64,000 nucleotides of DNA from Bdellovibrionota bacterium. Its GTDB lineage: Bacteria; Bdellovibrionota_C; UBA2361; JAFLCA01. The DNA lies in the NCBI GenBank assembly GCA_044347745.1, contig JBIKUD010000008.1:26841-90840 (forward strand). Reading direction: 5' to 3'. This document shows, piece after piece, positions 4,380 through 57,912 of this stretch. Position numbers and translations under genes: made by a program. Within the stretch, counting starts at the first letter, position 1; every line of letters begins with the position of its first letter. The notes beneath the pieces are model-generated. The model had not been told where the DNA came from, did not search any database, and was given only the letters and a program-made list of their open reading frames with translations.

Positions 4380-5258
4380 GTGAGTTCTAATCTGTCAGAG
4401 TCTCTGCAAGCGATATATGCCGAAGTGCAGCGCAGTGCCGATCGTATGGGTGGTTGCGATCCCCAATGGCTTAGAAATTCCGAACCAGTTCAATTTAGCA
4501 CAGTTGAAATTCCAACCAAGTCAGTTGATGCTCAGGTTCCCGAGTTAGTGCTGCTGCACGGACTACTGGGTGCTTTATCAAACTGGGACACAGTAGCACC
4601 CTTGATGGCAGAGTATAGTAAGCCGGTGGCCCTCTCGTTGCCGATTTTGACCGCCCGTCGCACTGAAGTAAAAGTCAAAGCATTGGCTGCATATACTGAA
4701 GTTTTTATTCGCAGCAGAAAACTAACTCCGGTTGCACTTTGCGGGAATTCACTTGGCGGCCACGTGGCAATGCGCCTGTGTTTAGCAAGGCCAGAGTTGG
4801 TTGATTGTTTAATTTTGTCAGGGTCCTCTGGACTCTATGAGCATTCGGTAGATGCCTTGCCTGTGCGTCCTGATAGAAAATACCTGCGCGAGCATATGGC
4901 CAGAGTCTTCTATCAACCGCAGTTTACTACCGATGAGCGCATTGAGGAGATTTATAAAATTGTTTCAAAGCGTGGGAATGTGCTGAATTTAATTCACACT
5001 GCTCGCAGCGCCAAAAAAGATAATCTTTTGCAGGTGCTTAAAGAGATAAAGGTTCCGGTGCTTTTGTTGTGGGGAGAAGACGACCAAGTTACCACTATGC
5101 AAGTGGCTGAACAGTTTCATAAAAATTTGCCCAATTCTGAGCTTGTTTCGATTAAAAACTGTGGGCACGCGCCAATGATTGAGTATCCGGAGTGGTTTGC
5201 CGAGCAGGTGCAGCGTTTTTTAAAGAAACATTCTCGTTTTTCAAAAGTGAGCTCGTAG
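4380..5258 (+). CDS. Alpha/beta-fold hydrolase
   Basis: HGLLG oxyanion-type motif near the N-terminus and a GNSLGG nucleophile elbow (GxSxG). Length 292 aa. A late His lies in the CGHAP motif. Confidence 0.65.
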   Translation: MSSNLSESLQAIYAEVQRSADRMGGCDPQWLRNSEPVQFSTVEIPTKSVDAQVPELVLLHGLLGALSNWDTVAPLMAEYSKPVALSLPILTARRTEVKVKALAAYTEVFIRSRKLTPVALCGNSLGGHVAMRLCLARPELVDCLILSGSSGLYEHSVDALPVRPDRKYLREHMARVFYQPQFTTDERIEEIYKIVSKRGNVLNLIHTARSAKKDNLLQVLKEIKVPVLLLWGEDDQVTTMQVAEQFHKNLPNSELVSIKNCGHAPMIEYPEWFAEQVQRFLKKHSRFSKVSS

Positions 5259-5287: not shown

Positions 5288-5839
5288 ATGATTAGAGAAA
5301 AAAGTAGCGATAAGTTCCCGCTCTTAAGCCCCATACCTGCATTTGCTTTGCGAAATGTAGATGGAGCAATGATATCTCAAAACTTTTTTCAGGGAGCAAA
5401 GGCGTCCTTGGTGTTTTTTAGCTGCAACCACTGCCCGTATGTGAAAGGAAGCGAAGACTTACTTGTTCGCCTCGTGCGTGAATTTGAGCCTAAGGGACTC
5501 CGCACTGTTGCCATAAACTCGAATGATGCTCAAAAATATCCTGATGACTCATTTGAGATGATGCAGCAAAAAGCTAAAATTGCAGCCTTGCCCTATCCGT
5601 ATCTACATGATGAATCACAAGAAGTGGCCCGTAGCTTTGATGCTGCCTGTACGCCAGAGTTTTATTTGTTTAATGCTGCTGGAAAACTTTGTTATCACGG
5701 AACTATTAATGATAGTCCAAAGGATGCCAGCAAGGTGAGCAAGCAGCATTTACGCACAGCGCTAGAGCAACTTTTTTCTGGAGCGGAAGTAAGCCCAGGC
5801 TATGTGCATCCGCTTGGCTGCTCGATTAAGTGGAAGTGA
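5288..5839 (+). CDS. Thioredoxin-fold protein (redoxin/TlpA-like thiol-disulfide oxidoreductase)
   Basis: CxxC motif in the context FFSCNHCPYVKG. Length about 180 aa, typical of thioredoxin-like proteins. Confidence 0.55.
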   Translation: MIREKSSDKFPLLSPIPAFALRNVDGAMISQNFFQGAKASLVFFSCNHCPYVKGSEDLLVRLVREFEPKGLRTVAINSNDAQKYPDDSFEMMQQKAKIAALPYPYLHDESQEVARSFDAACTPEFYLFNAAGKLCYHGTINDSPKDASKVSKQHLRTALEQLFSGAEVSPGYVHPLGCSIKWK

Positions 5840-6452
5840 AGTTCTTTTTTTGATGCGCGGGCTCGGATTTCAGTGTCCGTTGAGCGGCACTCCGTCAAAC
5901 TGTTATCTGTACAACTGTTAGTCCGTAACCCGTGATCTGCTGCTCCCGTTCTCCGTCGGCCCGTATTCAGTACACCAGTTAGTCCGTTTTCTGTGACCTG
6001 CTCCAGTTTCAGAAACCAGTTTCGAGCTCCTGAGAAATAAGGGGCTCTTAGCCCCGGTACATTAATAGCTTATAAAGATGAGCTGCCAAGCAGTCGGCTT
6101 CTGCTACAAGATGGCTGCCACTTGCTCCAAGCTCAAGTATGGCCTGGCACTCATTTTCCGTTGAGCCGAAATCCGACAAACCGGGATCAGCCCACTGGTC
6201 TCCGGCACCTGACTTGGCAAGAAGGCAGTCAGGCTTGGCAGAAGCTAGACTGCCTCGGCGCTCACTTATATAAACTTATTAAGAGTACGGGCTGAGGCCC
6301 TACTTTTTTTCCGAATTTCAGTTGCTGTTGGGCTGTCTCCCGTTGGCCCGTAGCCTGTCCTGGACCCTGGTTTTCCAGTCCCTGACCCGGATCCGGAAAA
6401 AACGGTCTCGGAGTTGGGCACCAGATCCTGAAACTTCCATTTATCTTAGTAG

Positions 6453-6488
6453 ATAAAAAAAAGGCTAAGTGGGTGGGGGACCCACTTA
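6453..6488 (-). terminator. Rho-independent terminator-like hairpin on the minus strand, with no annotated gene upstream of it
   Basis: Perfect 8-9 bp stem (aagtgggt / acccactt) with a 5-nt G loop. On the minus strand it is followed after 3 nt by a run of 9 T. Confidence 0.5.
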
Positions 6489-6794
6489 ACCAGGAGTCAG
6501 GCATTAAATATTTCACTTTGAAATTATCGCCGTGAATTAAAGGGTATTTCTATCCATTGCGAGAAGTGTGCCAATTCCCAGGTTGTGTTATCAGTACCAA
6601 GGTTACTAGTTTGTTAAGGTAACTGTAAGATTTGGACGTAACGTAAGATTGTAAGAAAAGTTATAAATTATATAGTAAATTCAATAAGATAAACTTAATC
6701 GCCAGCTTCTGGCCTGTCTGGCCGATAGAAACTAAGGCAAAATTGGCAACTCCTCAGAAAAATTGGGAACCAGGATTACGAAGGTGAACTACAT

Positions 6795-8783
6795 ATGAGT
6801 TTGAACATCAAAAACTTAAGCAAGTTGGCTAATGCCGTCCGAGTGCTATCAATTGATGCCATTGAAAAAGCAAATTCGGGACACCCTGGCTTGCCGCTCG
6901 GCGCTGCCGATTTCACCACTTTGCTTTGGGCAAACCACCTGCGTTTTAACCCCAAGAATCCCGGATGGATTGGCCGGGACCGCTTTATTTTGTCAGCCGG
7001 ACACGGCTGTATGCTTTGGTATTCTTTGCTTCATTTGTTTGGTTATGACCTTGGCCTAAATGACCTTAAAAGCTTTAGGCAATGGGAAAGCAGAACACCA
7101 GGACACCCTGAATTTGGAATGACCCCTGGTATTGAAACCACCACCGGGCCACTTGGGCAGGGGTTCGCAAATGGTGTGGGCATGGCACTGGCATCTAAAA
7201 TGCTGGCTGAGCGTTATTCGCAAAGCTTGTTTGGTTCAAAGGTTTTTGCCGTTGTCAGTGACGGAGATGTAATGGAAGGTGTCGCCAGCGAGGCGGCTTC
7301 ATTGGCCGGACACTGGGGCCTCAATAATCTAATTTACCTATACGACGATAATCATATCTCGTTGGCCGGACATACCGATGTTTGTTTTACCGAGTCAGTA
7401 CCTCAAAGACTTGAGGGCCAAGGTTGGTTTACTCAGTCGGTAAATGGGCATGATATCGCTGCGGTTGAAGCCTGCATTCAAAAGGCAAAGGCAGAAAAAA
7501 ACAGGCCAAGTATTATTTGCTGCCGAACGACTTTGGGGTTTGGTAGTCCCAATAAAGCTAATACCCATGACGTACATGGAGCTCCGTTGGGAGCCGAGGA
7601 ACTGAAGCTCACCAAAAAAGCTTTGGGTTGGCCTGAGGATAGTCAGTTTTTAGTTCCCGAAGATGTGCAGGCTTATTGTAATGAGTTAATTGAAAGCAAA
7701 ATTGCTGAGTACCAGAAATGGGAGAAAGAATTTGCAGCTTGGGAGAAAGCTGAAGGTGGAAAAGCGAAAGAGCTGAAGGCTCAAATTGCGCGAGAGTTAC
7801 CAGCAACCTTAAAAGGTAGTTTGCTTGCAGCTTTTGCTGAGCCCAAAAAAGATGCTACCCGCAATCTTTCCCATAAAGCGATTCAAGTTATCGCCAAAGA
7901 AGTGCCTTGGTTTGTGGGCGGATCCGCTGATCTTGATCCTTCAACCAAGACCAACATCAAAGATGGCGGAGATGTACAAAAGCCAGCTTTTAGTGGCAAA
8001 AACATAAAGTTTGGTGTGCGTGAACATGCGATGGGGTCGATTGCAAATGCGTTTGCATATACCCGCGCATGGGTTCCCTATACTGCAACCTTCCTCGTTT
8101 TTGCCGACTACATGCGGCCGCCAATACGGCTTGCCGCCATTTCGCATTTACAATCACTCTTTATTTTTACTCATGATTCATTTTGGGTTGGCGAAGATGG
8201 GCCTACTCATGAACCAATTGAGCATGTCATGAGTTTGCGCGCGATTCCGCAGTTGTATGTGTTTAGACCAGCGGACGGAATTGAAGTTGCCATGTGTTAT
8301 TACGAGGCGCTGAACCTTAAAGAACGTCCGAGCACCTTAATGTTTACTCGTCAAAATGTGGCCCCACTCGAAAGAGAGGCAAATTTCAACCCAGATATGA
8401 TTGGGAAAGGGGCTTACATCGTAAGTGGCACGGACGTAGAAAGTTTGGTGCTTGTTGCCACAGGTTCTGAAGTTGCCCTAGCTTGCGAAGCCAAGAAGCT
8501 GCTTGCTTCTAAGGGGATTAAGGCCAGAGTGGTTTCAATGCCCTGTATGGAGAAATTCTTTGAGCAGCCTCAGTCTTATCGCGAGGCGATTCTTCCCGCT
8601 GCTGCAAAGAAGGTTTCAATTGAAGCTGGAATTACTATGGGCTGGCATATAATAGTTGGCTCAGGCGGATTAACAATTGGCCTAGACCACTACGGAGCTT
8701 CGGCCCCTGGTGAACTATTGGCAGAAAAATTTGGTTTCACACCAGGTGCTGTTGCTCAGAAAATTGAAGCTTGGCTTAAATAG
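6795..8783 (+). CDS. tkt: Transketolase
   Basis: 662 aa. It has the N-terminal TPP-binding motif SGHPGLPLGAADF, and the length and overall layout are typical of Tkt. Confidence 0.92.
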   Translation: MSLNIKNLSKLANAVRVLSIDAIEKANSGHPGLPLGAADFTTLLWANHLRFNPKNPGWIGRDRFILSAGHGCMLWYSLLHLFGYDLGLNDLKSFRQWESRTPGHPEFGMTPGIETTTGPLGQGFANGVGMALASKMLAERYSQSLFGSKVFAVVSDGDVMEGVASEAASLAGHWGLNNLIYLYDDNHISLAGHTDVCFTESVPQRLEGQGWFTQSVNGHDIAAVEACIQKAKAEKNRPSIICCRTTLGFGSPNKANTHDVHGAPLGAEELKLTKKALGWPEDSQFLVPEDVQAYCNELIESKIAEYQKWEKEFAAWEKAEGGKAKELKAQIARELPATLKGSLLAAFAEPKKDATRNLSHKAIQVIAKEVPWFVGGSADLDPSTKTNIKDGGDVQKPAFSGKNIKFGVREHAMGSIANAFAYTRAWVPYTATFLVFADYMRPPIRLAAISHLQSLFIFTHDSFWVGEDGPTHEPIEHVMSLRAIPQLYVFRPADGIEVAMCYYEALNLKERPSTLMFTRQNVAPLEREANFNPDMIGKGAYIVSGTDVESLVLVATGSEVALACEAKKLLASKGIKARVVSMPCMEKFFEQPQSYREAILPAAAKKVSIEAGITMGWHIIVGSGGLTIGLDHYGASAPGELLAEKFGFTPGAVAQKIEAWLK

Positions 8784-9025
8784 TAGTGGTGGAAGCGCTG
8801 GTGCAGGATCAGGAGCCGGATCAGGTTCAGGATCTGGCGACGGGAAAACTGGCAAACTGTTCAACGGAAAGCAGTTGACTGCAAAACTCTGCAAGTGATT
8901 TTCTGATTCCCGAACCCGAAATCAGTATCTGGCGGCGGGATTACCAACAACTGTTGACCGTAAGCTATTGCTGCAACAAAATTTCAATTCGCCAAATTAA
9001 TAGCACTGCTCTGTTCTCATTCGCA

Positions 9026-11374: not shown

Positions 11375-12946
11375 TCAAACTCCGGTGCACCCACAACCTA
11401 AATTACAGCAGCGGTTATTGGCATTGCATCCGCTAGTACAGTAGGCACCTTGCGGCCCGCTACATTGACTACAGGTTAAGGTAGCTGTCGGAGAGGGTGT
11501 GTGGGTTGGTGTGGGCGTTAAGGTGATGGTCGCAGTGGCAGTCATAGTCGGTGTTGGAGACGGAGTGGTTGTGGCTGTAGCTGTTGCCGTTGCTGTTGCG
11601 GTTTGAGTTGGACTGCTTGTAGCGGTTGCAGTAGCTGTTTGCGTCGGAGTTGAAGTTGTTGTGGCCGTTTGAGTTGGAGTTCTCGTTGTTGTCGGAGTCC
11701 TTGTTGGTGTGCGTGTCGGCGTAACTGACGGTGTTAGGGTGACAGTCGGGGTTAAAGTCACGGTTGGCGTTAACGTAATTGTTGGCGTCGGGGTTACAGT
11801 TCCTGTTGCCGTGCTTGTCGGTGTGCTCGTTGTGGTCGGAGTCTGAGTCGGTGTCGGCGTAATAGTTGGCGTCAGTGTGGACGTTGGCGTTGAAGTAACC
11901 GTTGGCGTAAGGGTGATAGTTGGGGTGAGAGTCACCGTAGGCGTCGGCGTTATTGTAGGAGTAAGAGTTGGCGTCGGCGTTATTGTTGGTGTGCTCGTTG
12001 GTGTTGTCGTTGGTGTACTGGTGCTCGTTGGAGTTTGAGTCGGCGTTGGCGTAATTGTGGGTGTATTCGTAATCGTCGGTGTCAGCGTTGGGGTGTTCGT
12101 TGTTGTTGCCGTGGCTGTTGGTGTTGTAGTGGGTGTTAGTGTTGGCGTTGGTGTAAGTGTAGGAGTTGGAGTTGGGCTTACTGTAGCCGTTGGTGCCACG
12201 CCGCCTAGACCAAATACTCTTGCTCTACGAAAAGCAACCTGAGCTGCAACAAGTCTAAAATTTGGCACTAAAGGAGTGACTGGACTAAAGTCTACTTCTA
12301 AATGAACCACTAATGGATGCAAACCGAGCACATTCGCCCAGCTTTCTGTAGGTCCAGGCCAAAATTGGTTTGTGGTCGAATTTCGCGAAGGGTGCTCTAA
12401 AATCGAGTTATCACTCATGCGGCGCACTCTTTCGCCGGGACGCATAAACGCAGCATCTCTTAGATTTGAATTAGTAATGCCGCTGCCCGGAGCAACATAC
12501 GTAAGGCCCGAGCAATATGGGTTAGAGCTGCAGGTATAATCTGGAGAAAAGTAATGATCGAAAGGGATTAGTCGAGCACCACTAGGCACATTTGAAGGTG
12601 ATACTACCAGAGAAGCAGTTTGAAGCGCCCGCCCAAGCACGCCTGAATTCGGTACCCCGTTTGTGCCAAACACATCTGCGTGAAATTGGGCACATTTTTG
12701 GGTATTCGCGATTGTCGCCGTGCAAAATGTTTGATCAGTGGGAATTTCTGTTTCGCGTTTAGCTGCAAAATCAACTGCATCATGGGCAGCCCAATTCAGC
12801 ACCACCCAAATGAGAAAATAGCGGGCTATGTCGATGGTGAAAAAAACGAAGAGTAGAAAAATGGGCAGCGTGATGGCCGCCTCGATAAACGAGACCCCAG
12901 ATTGACTGGGTACTCTAGAGCGAAAAGATGAACGCGGGCCCTGCAT
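11375..12946 (-). CDS. TadE-like pseudopilin carrying a ~270-aa Thr-Pro repeat tract and a C-terminal Cys-rich knot
   Basis: N-terminal TadE motif [26 protein letters not shown]. The long (TPTPTLTPT)n region is encoded at about 11470-12250. The last 31 aa contain 10 Cys ([32 protein letters not shown]). Confidence 0.6.
11470..12250 (-). repeat. Highly repetitive coding DNA (degenerate 6-9 nt units encoding Thr-Pro repeats)
   Basis: On the plus strand I see periodic gttggcgt / gtcggcgt / gttggagt units. An antisense ORF translates as a VGV repeat. Confidence 0.7.
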
Positions 12947-13113
12947 AATTCTGTCGACTCAATCCGTAAGTACTCATACTAGGCAAGGGCCAGAATCCAT
13001 TCAAGCTATAGCTTACTTTTTAAATGACCAGCCATGGCCATTTAAAAAGCGCTCCAAACTCCATTGGGGCCCCACTGCACCCCAACACCTTGCTTTGCCC
13101 CGAGCTCACCCTT

Positions 13114-50043: not shown

Positions 50044-50114
50044 GCCCCAATTTTCCTTGAAATTTCTGGCTTTCGATAGTCGGTATTAAATTGACTTCGC
50101 CTCACGCGCTTGTT

Positions 50115-50270
50115 AACAAAAGGGTAGTTAAGTTCAAGGGAAGAACGGTGTAATTCCGTCGCGGTCCCGCCGCTGTATAAGGCGTATCTAGCTCCAATAC
50201 GACCACTCCTGCATATCTTTGGTAGGGGGAAGGTCGGAGCTTCCTTTAGCCTCAAGCCAGAAGACCTACT
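50115..50270 (+). ncRNA. Cobalamin (adenosylcobalamin) riboswitch leader
   Basis: It matches the consensus core: aagggaagaacggtgtaattccgtcgcggtcccgccgctgtataagg, then a B12-box-like gaccactcctgca...ggtagggggaaggtcgg. It lies just upstream of the TonB-dependent receptor gene. Confidence 0.8.
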
Positions 50271-50321
50271 TAGCTGTGTGAGTTGATTTCTCCCTCGTGG
50301 ATTGGGGTTTAATCACACTAT

Positions 50322-52289
50322 GTGTCTATATACATATCTTTTGGAGGCTCTATGCCATCCCGCCTTTCGTGCTGCGCGTTAGTTTCGTTGCTAATGCCGG
50401 TTAGTTTAATTCATGCCCAAGAAAATGTTCCCGTCCAAAATGATCAACCAAATGCTTCAAGCCGGCGCGTTGTAGTCACTGCAACCCGCACCGAGGTAGA
50501 CCGCGAGCGAGTTGCAAGTTCAATATCGGTAATTGACTCCGAAACCATTCAGCGAAGTGGTGCTGTGACAGTTGCTGATTTGTTGCGCATCGTTCCGGGA
50601 GTGGATGTGGTGCGTTCTGGGCCAGTTGGTGGCAATGTGGCGGTATTTTTACGGGGCGCGAATTCGGAACATACCCTCGTGTTGATTGATGGAGTTGAGG
50701 CCAACGATCCCATTTCACCTACACGAGTGTACAATTTTGCTGATTTTCCAGCCGAAAATATAGAACGTATTGAAATATTGCGTGGGCCCCAAAGCACTCT
50801 CTATGGCTCCGATGCTATGGGCGGCGTCATCGCCTTATTCACCAAAAAAGGCAGCAAAGGCACTCAGGCATCATTGAGCTTTGAAGGAGGCTCATACAAC
50901 ACATTCAAAGAGACTGCTGAGCTTTCTGGGGCAGCCACTCAGTTTAACTATTCTCTTAGTGCCCAGCGATTTGACACGGGGGGTGTCTCGGCTGCCGATA
51001 GGAGAGATGGAAACAGGGAAAAAGATGGGTATGAGCGAAATTCCTTTTCGGCAGTCCTTGGTGCTGAAATAACAAATAACCTTCGCTCAGATTCTACTTT
51101 CCGTTATCTAGCTTCTGAAGCTGAGCTTGATAATTTTGGCGGCATTGGAGCAGATGATCCTAACCGAATTCTTGAGCGAGAGCAGCTTTTTGCGCGAACT
51201 GCACTGAGTGGCACCGTATTACATCCTGATTTGACACAGACCCTAGGCGTAAGTGTAAGTCATCAAAACTTTGAGGATAATAATGATCCTGACGTGCTTA
51301 ATCCGCTTGATTCGCTTAGATCAAGTTATACAAGCAGGCTTCTTAAGTTCGACTTTCAGAATGAATTCAAAGCTTCAGAGGCTGTCAGCATAGTTGCTGG
51401 ATTAGAAACGGAAGATGAACGTGGAAGTTCAGCTTATTCTTCCGATGGGTTTTTTGGACCATTTGAGAATAATTTTGATTCCGCTGATGCACGCACAAAC
51501 TCTGCGTACCTCAATTTCCTACTGCACGTAGGGAGCGGTTTCTCTACCTCAATAGGTGCCCGTGTTGACGACCATTCTCGATTTGGTTCTGAGGAATCTT
51601 GGAAATTAGCCCCGGCATACATGTTTTCCGAGACAAATACTCGTGTTTTTGGTTCGGTTGGAACTGGATTTAAAGCTCCTTCCCTCTTTCAGTTGTACTC
51701 AAGTTATGGAAATCCCGATTTGAAGCCAGAAGAAAGTTTGGGATGGGATTTGGGAATTGAGCAACAGATAGGATCTGACGGGGCCTCGGCGTCGCTGACC
51801 TATTTTCATAACGATTTTGATGAGCTGATCTCGTTTAACCCCAACACATTTGTTTCTGAAAATATTGCGAGAGCGAGAACTGAGGGTGTTGAGTTTGCCT
51901 TAAAAACTCCGTTAATTGAAGGCGTACATGCCACTACTTCTTATACCTACACGGATACAGAAGACCTTGATTTAAGGAGCTCCCTTTTAAGGCGTCCACG
52001 CCACAAAGCAGCCCTCGAATTAAGCGCGCAAGCGACCAAAGACCTTGCGTTTGATGTCGGTGCGACCATGGTTGGTAGAAGCTTTGATAATGATTTTTCT
52101 ACCTTTCCAGCTTCGCGAGTGGCGCTCGGATCGCATACGCTTGTACATGCGGGAGCCAGATATACGCTGTCTGAAAACGTACAGCTTTTTGCAAGAGTTG
52201 AGAATCTACTCGACAAATCCTATCAGCGAGTTTTAGGCTATGGCGAGCAAGGGTTGGCTGCTTTTGGGGGCCTAAAAGTGAAACTCTAA
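50322..52289 (+). CDS. btuB: TonB-dependent outer-membrane receptor, likely a cobalamin transporter
   Basis: Signal peptide, a TonB-box-like RRVVVTATRTEV, a plug domain, and a C-terminal beta-barrel ending in ...LKVKL. It is preceded by the cobalamin riboswitch. Confidence 0.8.
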   Translation: MSIYISFGGSMPSRLSCCALVSLLMPVSLIHAQENVPVQNDQPNASSRRVVVTATRTEVDRERVASSISVIDSETIQRSGAVTVADLLRIVPGVDVVRSGPVGGNVAVFLRGANSEHTLVLIDGVEANDPISPTRVYNFADFPAENIERIEILRGPQSTLYGSDAMGGVIALFTKKGSKGTQASLSFEGGSYNTFKETAELSGAATQFNYSLSAQRFDTGGVSAADRRDGNREKDGYERNSFSAVLGAEITNNLRSDSTFRYLASEAELDNFGGIGADDPNRILEREQLFARTALSGTVLHPDLTQTLGVSVSHQNFEDNNDPDVLNPLDSLRSSYTSRLLKFDFQNEFKASEAVSIVAGLETEDERGSSAYSSDGFFGPFENNFDSADARTNSAYLNFLLHVGSGFSTSIGARVDDHSRFGSEESWKLAPAYMFSETNTRVFGSVGTGFKAPSLFQLYSSYGNPDLKPEESLGWDLGIEQQIGSDGASASLTYFHNDFDELISFNPNTFVSENIARARTEGVEFALKTPLIEGVHATTSYTYTDTEDLDLRSSLLRRPRHKAALELSAQATKDLAFDVGATMVGRSFDNDFSTFPASRVALGSHTLVHAGARYTLSENVQLFARVENLLDKSYQRVLGYGEQGLAAFGGLKVKL

Positions 52290-55511: not shown

Positions 55512-55592
55512 TCTGAGGCGCTTTGGCTTAAGGTGGCGCTGGAAGAACTGTGCCCAAAAGGCTAGCATGGTGGCTAGGTAGGAGCGAGGCGT

Positions 55593-56432
55593 ATGACACC
55601 TAACCTCAAAAAAACTATGTTACCTATTGGCGTATTTGATAGTGGCCTCGGTGGCCTTACGGTGCTGCGTGAGCTCCGGAAACGGCTGCCTGCTGAGCGC
55701 TTTATCTATTTGGGAGACACCGCGCGTGCTCCCTACGGCAGCAAAAGTGAGGAGACTATTCTTCGTTATGCCCAAGAGTGTGCGCATTTCCTACAGGTGC
55801 AAGGTGTAAAACTGGTAGTAGTTGCATGTAACACAGTGTCGGCGGTAGCCCTTGATGTCTTAGCTAAAGACTCCTCGGTGCCTTTGGTGGGCACCATAGA
55901 TTCGGCGGTGAATTCTGTACTTGAGCTCTCAGAGGTACAACGGATAGGAGTTATCGGAACGCAGGCAACAATAGCCAGTCAGAGTTACGAACGTGCATTG
56001 TTTCAAAATAAAATTGATGCGCAGGTGCTCACAAAACCTTGCCCACTTTTTGTGCCCTTAGTGGAAAATGGGTTATGTGAGGGTGAGATTGTCGATCGGG
56101 TGATTGATCTTTATTTATCTGACCTCAGGGCTGCCCGCATAGACACGTTGATTCTTGGATGTACCCACTACCCAATGTTGACGCGAGCATTGCAAAAGTA
56201 TTTTGGCGCTAGGACCCGAATTGTAGAGTGCTCAAAGTCTGTTGCTTACTCTGTTTCGAGCCTCTTAGCTCAGCAGCAGCTTGAGCAAGATTCTAGCGGG
56301 TTGTTAGGCGATAGTGAGAGGTATTTTGTTACCGACGATGTTGCCCGTTTTAATGCGCTGGCATCTCTGTTTCTTGAGGGGCATACTGTGCAAGCAGTGC
56401 AGCTTGAATCGATTGCATCCATTATTACTTGA
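55593..56432 (+). CDS. murI: Glutamate racemase
   Basis: GVFDSGLGGLTV and GCTHYP motifs. Confidence 0.9.
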   Translation: MTPNLKKTMLPIGVFDSGLGGLTVLRELRKRLPAERFIYLGDTARAPYGSKSEETILRYAQECAHFLQVQGVKLVVVACNTVSAVALDVLAKDSSVPLVGTIDSAVNSVLELSEVQRIGVIGTQATIASQSYERALFQNKIDAQVLTKPCPLFVPLVENGLCEGEIVDRVIDLYLSDLRAARIDTLILGCTHYPMLTRALQKYFGARTRIVECSKSVAYSVSSLLAQQQLEQDSSGLLGDSERYFVTDDVARFNALASLFLEGHTVQAVQLESIASIIT

Positions 56433-56973: not shown

Positions 56974-57912
56974 TTGAAAGAGGTCTTTATGGGTGGTGGT
57001 CTGCTTATTGTCGCAATGTTCTTCTTGGTATTTGTTGTTGTCGTAGTATTAAAAACTGCGGTGGTTGTGCCACAGCAAAGTGCCTATGTGGTTGAGCGCC
57101 TTGGTCGATACAGAACAACCCTTGGTGCTGGGTTTCACATACTCTTGCCGTTTATAGATCAGATTCGGTATCGGCATTCTCTCAAAGAGCAGGCTATCGA
57201 TATCCCCGAGCAGGTATGTATTACAAAAGACAACGTGCAAGTTGGCGTTGATGGAATTATTTACCTAAAAGTGCTGAATGCTGAGCGTGCTTCCTACGGA
57301 ATTGAGAATTATGAATTTGCAATTCAGCAGTTAGCGCAAACTACCTTGCGATCTGAGATCGGTAAAATTGACCTCGACAGAACTTTTGAGGAGAGATCGC
57401 ATATTAATGGGCTTGTCATAACCGAACTCGATAAGGCATCAGAAGCTTGGGGAATAAAAGTGCTTCGCTATGAGATTAAGAATATTAATCCACCCCACGA
57501 TGTACTTGCCGCGATGGAAAAGCAGATGCGAGCTGAGCGTGAAAAACGAGCTCTTATTTTAACCTCAGAAGGTGAGCGCGACGCTGCAATTAATAGAGCT
57601 GAAGGCGAAAAACAACAGCTCATCAAAGTTTCTGAGGCGCAGAAGCAAGAGCAAATAAATCTGGCCGAAGGTGAAGCCTCTGCGATTTTGAGTGTTGCCC
57701 AGGCAACGGCAGAAGGTTTGCGTTCAGTAGCTGCTGCTATTCATGATAAAGGTGGAGCGGAGGCTGTGCAGCTTCGAGTAGCTGAGCAGTATGTGAACCA
57801 ACTGGGGCAACTTGCCAAGGCTGGAAACACCCTCGTTGTTCCTGCCAATTTAACCGATGTGGGCTCTATGATTGCGTTAGCCATGTCAGCACTTAAAAAA
57901 GGCCAAAACTAG
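56974..57912 (+). CDS. SPFH/band-7 (stomatin-like) protein
   Basis: N-terminal TM, then VVPQQSAYVVERLGRYRTTLGAGFHILLPFID... typical of stomatin/HflKC-family proteins. Confidence 0.85.
   Translation: MKEVFMGGGLLIVAMFFLVFVVVVVLKTAVVVPQQSAYVVERLGRYRTTLGAGFHILLPFIDQIRYRHSLKEQAIDIPEQVCITKDNVQVGVDGIIYLKVLNAERASYGIENYEFAIQQLAQTTLRSEIGKIDLDRTFEERSHINGLVITELDKASEAWGIKVLRYEIKNINPPHDVLAAMEKQMRAEREKRALILTSEGERDAAINRAEGEKQQLIKVSEAQKQEQINLAEGEASAILSVAQATAEGLRSVAAAIHDKGGAEAVQLRVAEQYVNQLGQLAKAGNTLVVPANLTDVGSMIALAMSALKKGQN

Follow-up and report, generated by a model that had tools for sequence, protein, structure and literature searches.

A candidate sigma-54-driven small RNA conserved between a thioredoxin-like gene and tkt, beside a strain-variable non-coding spacer

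The 64,000-nucleotide stretch of Bdellovibrionota DNA analysed here (contig JBIKUD010000008.1; "the window" below) contains a gap of 955 bp between a thioredoxin-like (Trx-like, AhpC/TSA) gene, whose stop codon lies at 5839, and tkt, which starts at 6795. The gap holds two unrelated things, a minus-strand unit at 6455-6547 that we predict to be a small RNA (sRNA), and a non-coding spacer at 5840-6446. That the unit is a real sigma-54-driven sRNA transcription unit seems to us reasonably probable, given a promoter-like element, a fold and a terminator that are kept at the same place in four other lineages. An initial annotation had singled out the repeats and hairpins of the gap as one or two structured non-coding RNAs; these conspicuous repeats belong to a strain-variable spacer without sign of function, and the inconspicuous adjoining stretch is the conserved element. 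In the public contigs that carry the locus, gene callers placed no gene in the gap. The elements of the candidate unit are as follows.

6455-6547, minus strand: candidate sRNA of ~92 nt (from conservation, fold, covariance model and promoter)
Near 6546/6547, minus strand: predicted +1 (start of the conserved block)
6537-6547, minus strand: predicted 5′ single strand of the sRNA, (A)UACCCUUUAA
6512-6536, minus strand: predicted stem-loop SL1
6492-6511, minus strand: conserved single-stranded linker, AUAUUUAAUGCCUGACUCCU
6463-6491, minus strand: terminator stem-loop of 12 bp
6455-6462, minus strand: U8 run
6558-6573, minus strand: putative sigma-54 -24/-12 promoter TGGCACACTTCTCGCA, GG-N10-GC (from motif, weight matrix and conservation)
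6618-6624 and 6601-6607, minus strand: candidate enhancer boxes AGTTACC and AGTAACC (from box conservation in relatives)

Five lineages were compared (the window, L029, L032, L051 and L047), aligned in the minus-strand sense of the window. In the four relatives, whose Trx-like proteins are only 60-64% identical to that of the window, a block running from "TAGATAAAAAAAAGG.." through the hairpin, the linker, SL1 and the 5′ strand is located after the Trx-like gene. The same block occurs in L047-L049, and the position between the Trx-like gene and tkt is common to all. In L029 (NCBI GCA_041907145.1; Trx-like protein 64% identical, Trx-tkt gap 286 bp), "ctagataaaaaaaaggttaagtgggtgggggaacccacttaaccaggagtcaggcatta" stands immediately 3′ of the Trx stop codon and reproduces window 6447-6506 almost base for base. 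Identity between lineages is 78-96% over the sRNA, 88-98% over its 3′ 57 nt and 63-78% over the coding DNA of Trx and tkt, while the region upstream of the sRNA promoter is ~50% identical, with the exception of the closely related pair L032 and L051 (83%). Read from 5′ to 3′, the unit has the same order in all five lineages: GTAAC-type boxes, ~27 variable nt, TGGCAY-N5-TYGCW, 10-12 variable nt and a conserved block of 90-92 nt. A covariance model built from the sRNA gives one match per locus at 80-117 bits and no paralogue, and in a BLAST comparison the sRNA has no match in the spacer, which disposes of the earlier suggestion of a duplicated sRNA. Conservation in related genomes therefore applies to one part of the flagged region, as the 6455-6547 unit is kept in the four other lineages but the repeat region 5840-6446 is missing from all relatives. 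Metagenome contigs scanned with ATGCCTGACTCCTGG-N(18-42)-TTTTTT gave 7 loci, all of them chance matches without the hairpin, and viral contigs scanned for the sRNA core gave 0 matches.

The -24/-12 element is the feature that ties this block to a predicted start of transcription, and it went unnoticed in the initial annotation. In the window, 11 nt separate the GC of the promoter from the start of the conserved block (10-12 nt across lineages), a distance that would fit a sigma-54 +1, and conservation begins exactly at this predicted +1. The motif TGGCAY-N5-TYGCW is found in 5/5 lineages with invariant GG-N10-GC spacing and with its flanking consensus bases kept, while the bases within the N5 gap and between -12 and +1 vary across lineages. 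A degenerate sigma-54 pattern occurs once per sRNA locus, always in the same place, and 3 times in the 64-kb window vs 0.5 expected. We also built a position weight matrix (PWM) from the 18 Escherichia coli sigma-54 promoters listed in PMC2831329. With this matrix the site at 6558-6573 scores 19.6 bits, in the upper part of the E. coli training set (range 9.5-21.1), and outscores every other position on either strand of the 64 kb. Of the homologous sites, those of L029, L051 and L047 likewise rank first in their sequences, that of L032 second. The next PWM matches in the window, at 57072 (-), 1651 (-) and 48283 (+), score 13.4-14.9 bits. The promoter of L029, TGGCACAGATTTCGCA, agrees with E. 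coli glnAp2, TGGCACAGATTTCGCT, at 15 of 16 positions, with only the last base differing (PMC2831329), and the window promoter has C rather than T at the -14 position, as in glnAp2. In contrast to glnAp2 and the enterobacterial promoters, the promoter proposed here would drive a non-coding RNA, and it lacks the NtrC site TGCACC-N5-GGTGCA. We rejected a reading of the TGGCA..TCGC block as the loop of an RNA hairpin, because the flanking "stems" shift position from lineage to lineage and because sigma-54 promoters have precisely these conserved bases at this spacing. No conserved sigma-70-like promoter was found at the sRNA locus.

Further upstream, the four relatives share GGTAAC-N6-GGTAAC, at the constant positions -44 and -32 relative to the -24 element. 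The window has GTAAC at -33, the only (proximal) box to have kept its position, and GTTAC at -50 and -69. It is plausible that these candidate boxes are activator-binding subsites; a search upstream of the sRNA promoter gave no LuxO, NtrC, NifA, GlrR or full CbrB consensus.

The predicted fold of the block, from 5′ to 3′, consists of an unpaired UAACCCUUUAG, a stem-loop of 9-12 bp (5 bp in the window), a linker A(U/A)UCAUAAUGCCUGACUCCU and a 12-bp hairpin followed by U6-U8. The consensus fold is thus one of two hairpins, and single-sequence folding gives z values of -5.1 to -7.3. Two stretches are both conserved and unpaired, one at the 5′ end (UAACCCUUUAG) and one between the hairpins (AUAAUGCCUGACUCCUGG). 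The linker seed UAAUGCCUGACUCCUGG is invariant and predicted to be unpaired in 4/5 lineages, while in the minimum free energy fold of the window it is partly paired. The GC-rich terminal hairpin, with its 12-bp stem and run of U6-U8, is present in 5/5 lineages, and in the window it is the strong minus-strand terminator that the initial annotation had pointed out (stem at 6463-6491, U8 at 6455-6462). It lies on the strand given there, but the description as an orphan does not hold, since it forms the 3′ end of the unit conserved in four other lineages. A non-coding RNA divergent from tkt, as had been suggested, can likewise be retained as a candidate that ends at this terminator, with the terminator, ~60 nt upstream of it and the sigma-54 promoter all conserved in the four lineages. 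After the stem of the window terminator a U-run is found on the minus strand only, and the G-U pairs in SL1 (L029, L047) and in the window terminator would be A-C mismatches on the opposite strand; taken with the orientation of the promoter, these observations place the sRNA on the minus strand.

The unit is judged to be non-coding. Only one open reading frame (ORF) of at least 60 aa is present in the gap, an 84-aa frame on the minus strand at 6262-6516 that crosses the minus-strand terminator, and this sole minus-strand ORF is thrown out of frame by an indel of 1 nt in the terminator loop. A minus-strand peptide starting from the AUG in the linker was rejected, as its frame is broken by the same indel. 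On the plus strand, AGGAG..ATG opens a mini-ORF of 5-10 codons that is different in each lineage and missing in the window, and a plus-strand leader peptide was rejected for this lack of conservation. The Rfam scan that had been proposed as a check (Rfam 15) returned no match at E<=10 over 5500-7100, so none of the families in the release was found, including Qrr and CrcZ if they are part of it. When the L029 homologue of the sRNA (5045-5151, minus strand) was scanned, the eukaryotic U8 snoRNA came up at 25.2 bits (E 0.014, gathering score 41) and mir-327 at 15 bits (gathering score 76); both matches are sub-threshold and are taken as chance.

Conservation of this kind could also arise if the block acted in cis, which we consider unlikely. 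It might then serve as a bidirectional terminator or insulator between convergent Trx-like and short sigma-54 transcripts, or as DNA bound by a regulator of tkt; in the first case, regulation would come from the act of sigma-54 transcription itself or from antisense transcription running on into the Trx-like gene. In L029 the hairpin follows the Trx stop codon by ~6 nt and no other Trx terminator is visible, the neighbours of the element are always the same, the GTAAC boxes are on the tkt side of the sRNA promoter, and no target has been identified, all of which would suit a local role. However, identity over at least 45 nt, with the unpaired linker and 5′ strand among them, is more than a terminator alone would preserve, and no T-run follows the hairpin in the plus direction. 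In the window, L032, L051 and L047, moreover, the Trx-like gene is 58-607 nt away and has terminator-like hairpins of its own, and the onset of conservation precisely at the predicted +1 is a further point against a purely local element.

We consider a trans-acting, base-pairing sRNA the most likely reading, as the predicted unit has the parts expected of one, beginning with a promoter of its own and continuing through a 5′ seed, a stem-loop and a conserved A/U-rich linker to a terminator that closes with a U-tail. In the mechanism that we propose, the -24/-12 element at 6558-6573 would be bound by RNA polymerase carrying sigma-54, and an ATP-dependent enhancer-binding activator would be needed, possibly at the GTAAC-type boxes 30-50 nt further upstream. 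The product would be an RNA of ~92 nt ending at the 12-bp hairpin and U8, which would pair with translation-initiation regions of mRNAs encoded elsewhere and repress them once the activator is on. The linker AUAAUGCCUGACUCCUGG contains CUCCU, the complement of a ribosome-binding site, and the complement of the full linker reads AGGAG-N9-AUG, so pairing with translation-initiation regions is indicated. Within the window, the best complement of the linker is CUAGGUAGGAGCGAGGCGUAUG at 55563-55610 (+), around the start (55593) of a murI-like ORF, with a predicted energy of -18.9 kcal/mol (z ~-3.2 among 270 candidate starts). An 8-nt complement of the sRNA seed in the spacer (AGTCAGGC, ~6227-6234) was dismissed, its rough chance probability being ~0.1.

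To our knowledge, sigma-54-dependent sRNAs are few and tend to control major lifestyle decisions. Qrr acts in quorum sensing, Pxr in multicellular development, CrcZ in carbon catabolite control and GlmY in cell-envelope synthesis. The Qrr1-5 RNAs of Vibrio are base-pairing sRNAs of ~100 nt with a Rho-independent terminator, and their promoters require sigma-54 and an activator of the NtrC type, LuxO. CrcZ is an RNA of ~400 nt that sequesters a protein through A-rich motifs. Among these systems, Pxr of the myxobacteria, Qrr and CrcZ appear to be the closest precedents of the window sRNA. With Qrr1-5 it shares its length (~92 nt), a sigma-54-type promoter and an intrinsic terminator, but it has no Rfam match to them, no LuxO site TTGCAW3TGCAA upstream and a single copy per locus, and it comes from another phylum. 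Unlike CrcZ, the predicted RNA is 92 nt long and without A-rich motifs. Pxr of Myxococcus xanthus and other myxobacteria is also an intergenic sRNA of ~100 nt (PMC5568312), but it shows no sequence or Rfam-level similarity to the window sRNA. Pxr has three stem-loops and is found beside the activator gene nla19, whereas the window sRNA has two predicted hairpins, its neighbours are the Trx-like gene and tkt, and no gene for an activator is close by. In Pseudomonas, CrcZ and CrcY are expressed from CbrB-dependent sigma-N promoters with the upstream activator subsites TGTTAC, GTAACA and GTAACg (PMC6296734). The boxes of the relatives, two copies of GGTAAC(A/C/G), and those of the window, GTTACC and GTAACC, resemble these subsites, but the full CbrB site TGTTAC-N14-GTAACA is absent at the sRNA locus and CbrAB has been described as exclusive to pseudomonads (PMC6296734). 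The resemblance may thus serve as a lead and not as a test. For Bdellovibrio-like bacteria, our search turned up no published sigma-54-dependent sRNA.

Several points weigh against a sigma-54-controlled, trans-acting sRNA. The sRNA at 6455-6547 is a prediction from sequence. The unit is missing at the site and in the fetched flanks of L030, L035, L037, L054 and L052, although the Trx-like proteins of the first four of these are comparably close to that of the window (61-64% identity; 59% in L052), and SL1 and the upstream boxes of the window are unlike those of the other four lineages. Covariation is weak: two pairs are changed on both sides among the 5 distinct sequences, a count that is reached in 56/500 shuffles and is not significant, and 11/12 terminator pairs never vary. 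The predicted structure therefore rests on thermodynamics and conservation and not on covariation; in the sRNA alignment, 95% of cells are paired vs 29-47% when the partners are slid. The GTAAC boxes are ~-56 to -70 from the +1, unusually near the promoter for an enhancer, and could serve tkt instead. There is no convincing target within the 64 kb, and the murI-like start is only a marginal candidate. RpoN, an enhancer-binding protein and Hfq are assumed for the host genome and none is encoded in the window, where we found no rpoN or RpoN-box protein, no GAFTGA enhancer-binding protein and no hfq. On the other side, sigma-54 is indicated for the wider group by the predicted RpoN-like gene of Bdellovibrio bacteriovorus HD100 and by the listing of rpoN for Bacteriovorax marinus.

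A wider proposal, which we put forward as possible and still short of probable, is that the locus represents an uncatalogued family of riboregulators controlled by sigma-54 and an activator, a switch resembling Qrr and Pxr in which a near-invariant anti-Shine-Dalgarno linker silences a regulon on a two-component signal. The family would belong to freshwater bacteria nearest to Oligoflexia and Bdellovibrionales metagenome-assembled genomes (MAGs), and the spacer could be the by-product of a recombination-prone palindrome inserted at the terminator. If this is true, the promoter, the candidate enhancer boxes and the 17-nt invariant seed would provide a handle on signal-dependent post-transcriptional control, with a conserved example from an uncultured lineage akin to Oligoflexia and Bdellovibrionales, in a group of whose regulation next to nothing has been learned.

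The remainder of the gap, 5840-6446, is 3′ of the sRNA terminator on the minus strand. Its parts are listed here.

5840-6446, no strand: non-coding spacer of ~600 bp, from the Trx stop codon to the sRNA 3′ end
5864-6005, plus strand: degenerate tandem modules A1 and A2 of ~61 nt (the 5890-5941 / 5951-6002 repeat)
6041-6055: small hairpin GGGGCTCTTAGCCCC
6057-6288: segment B, an imperfect palindrome of ~230 nt (232 bp) with arms at ~6057-6140 and 6200-6288, ~80 nt each
6284-6310, plus strand: terminator-like hairpin AGTAcGGGC-tgag-GCCCTACT followed by T7 (from a reading of the sequence)
6312-6446, plus strand: degenerate third module A″ (77% over 22 nt, weak alone; its position corresponds to an extra A copy in the strain variant L028)

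From the Trx stop codon to the sRNA block there are 607 nt in the window, 6 nt in L029, ~58 nt in L032 and L051 and ~70 nt in L047. Since the equivalent gap is short in the relatives, 5840-6446 with all of its repeats is a lineage-specific expansion. The imperfect direct repeats reported in the initial annotation are real in two cases out of three. The first pair, 5890-5941 and 5951-6002, has 73% identity over 52 nt at a spacing of 61 nt, and the second, 5870-5907 and 6151-6188, has 76% identity over 38 nt. The best off-diagonal self-alignment of 5840-6450 scores 17, and the 38-nt pair 15.5, vs 9.3 +/- 0.8 (maximum 11) in 40 dinucleotide shuffles; both scores exceed the shuffle maximum, which is the basis for accepting these pairs. 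The 13-nt match between 5953-5965 and 6340-6352 (12/13 matches) is at chance level when taken alone. Both hairpins that had been noted are present, GGGGCTCTTAGCCCC at 6041-6055 and the other at 6223-6255. The long imperfect palindrome at 6057-6288 and the plus-strand terminator at 6284-6310 had been overlooked. The arms of the palindrome begin and end with GTAC, its centre (6145-6188) holds an A-like module, and it folds at -103 kcal/mol with a z of -5.8 on either strand. A simple scan misses the plus-strand terminator because its stem has a bulge; this terminator probably ends the Trx-like transcript. Marginal similarity to the spacer modules is also seen 3′ of tkt (8823-8837 and 8946-8963), for example ACAACTGTTGACCGTAA vs ACAACTGTTAGTCCGTAA, with scores of 11.5-12.5 vs a null maximum of 11.5.

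The spacer varies between strains. The variant L028 (ENA ERZ27272066) is identical to the window over 5288-6103, then has 15 differences between 6104 and 6283, and after the plus-strand terminator, which is kept (T8), it carries an extra, clear copy of the A module in which the contig ends. Two further contigs end within the spacer, L024 at 6098 and L027 at 5992, and L024 has two substitutions in the spacer and L026 one. The three independent contig ends suggest heterogeneity in the population or assembly breaks induced by repeats. In our best reading, the spacer is a recombination-prone, non-coding expansion of the 3′ untranslated region (UTR) of the Trx-like gene. It would have grown by duplication of modules of ~60 nt and by acquisition or formation of the ~230-nt palindrome, in this lineage only, and as far as the terminator at 6284-6310 it would be transcribed as the 3′ UTR of that gene.

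We hold it to be distinctly unlikely that, as the initial annotation proposed, 5840-6450 with its repeats and hairpins encodes one or two structured sRNAs or an sRNA in duplicate. The region does fold better than its shuffles (z of -3.7 on the plus and -4.8 on the minus strand), L028 retains both the stable hairpin at 6223-6255 and, 3′ of it, the plus-strand terminator at 6284-6310, and four C-to-U substitutions in L028 keep their pair as G-U on the plus strand. A strong fold is expected, however, from an inverted duplication at the DNA level, which scores equally on both strands, and 6 of the 15 L028 substitutions in the palindrome break predicted pairs while 0/15 are compensatory. Absence from every relative, the lack of an Rfam match and the lack of similarity between 5840-6450 and the conserved sRNA all count against the proposal, and no promoter-like site was found inside the spacer on either strand.

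We think it rather unlikely, though less so, that a miniature mobile element makes up the spacer or part of it, with 6057-6288 as an insertion resembling a miniature inverted-repeat transposable element (MITE) and the A modules as duplicated target or flanking sequence. The long imperfect inverted arms, the size of less than 300 bp, the lack of an ORF and the restriction to this lineage would all be in keeping with such an element, as would the concentration of polymorphism in the spacer while the flanking genes are 100% identical. Three contigs break in the spacer, as assemblers do at repeats, but strain variability alone also accounts for these breaks. Neither the 64-kb window nor the additional flanking sequence of L022 and L023 contains a second copy of the spacer or palindrome, and BLAST of 5840-6800 against plasmid and phage collections gave no match. 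No clear target-site duplication can be recognized in the flanking GTAC, a self-complementary sequence that takes part in the pairing of the hairpin. The spacer is thus like elements of the enterobacterial repetitive intergenic consensus (ERIC) and MITE type in being a non-coding imperfect palindrome of 100-300 bp in an intergenic region, variable between lineages and here presumably transcribed, but differs from them in its single copy in the window and flanks, in having no clear target-site duplication and in having no similarity in the plasmid and phage collections. The 3′ UTR expansion that we favour may nonetheless have been seeded by a MITE-like palindrome.

A last possibility for the spacer, and a very improbable one, is that it was left behind by a protein-coding gene, now deleted or decayed, such as one for a minus-strand repeat protein rich in Gly, Ser and Thr. 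The GC content of 0.50-0.545 is coding-like, and the minus-strand frames give low-complexity peptides rich in G, S, T and P. However, six-frame translation shows stops in all frames, the repeat period of 61 nt is no multiple of 3, comparison with L028 reveals no synonymous excess in any frame, ten stop-free segments have no significant Pfam match, and the relatives have no gene at the position of the spacer. The initial annotation had offered a decayed duplicated element as its alternative, and for 5840-6446 this was nearer the mark, except that the frames and the Pfam search show no sign of a decayed protein gene.

The host is an uncultured freshwater bacterium, and near-identical contigs (98-100% over the stretch compared) are found in JGI, ENA and Logan metagenome assemblies. 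The Trx-like protein of the window is at most 67% identical to any other entry in the protein collection, and its named relatives are few, coming from MAGs labelled "Oligoflexia bacterium" and "Pseudomonadota bacterium". Among species-representative genomes, the top matches are MAGs of Bdellovibrionales and Bacteriovoracaceae at 48% identity, without synteny. The gene order parC-parE-hydrolase-Trx-like-tkt is kept in most relatives whose contigs extend that far, with L037 and L052 as partial exceptions. In L052 (2943-3181), TadE and Tad genes and not tkt follow the Trx-like gene, so the synteny is not universal, and no sRNA is found there.

On the tkt side of the gap, the AT-rich block described in the initial annotation is confirmed, with a GC content of 0.31-0.36 over 6500-6800 vs 0.50-0.545 over 5800-6500. 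The direct repeats AAAATTGGCAAC and AAAATTGGGAAC at 6739-6750 and 6759-6770 (+), 20 nt apart and 25-55 nt before the start codon of tkt, could be an operator or part of a tkt leader. Elsewhere in the window, a scan for tRNA and tmRNA genes found none. Four small "genes" (35-61 aa) that are annotated at window 11499-12242 (+) in public contigs translate to V/G-only low-complexity sequences and are antisense to the T/N/Y-rich repetitive part of a 527-aa ORF at 11378-12958 (-); these calls are probably spurious. A cobalamin riboswitch (RF00174; 81 bits, E 2e-18) is found at 50113-50287 (+), immediately 5′ of the ORF at 50313-52286.

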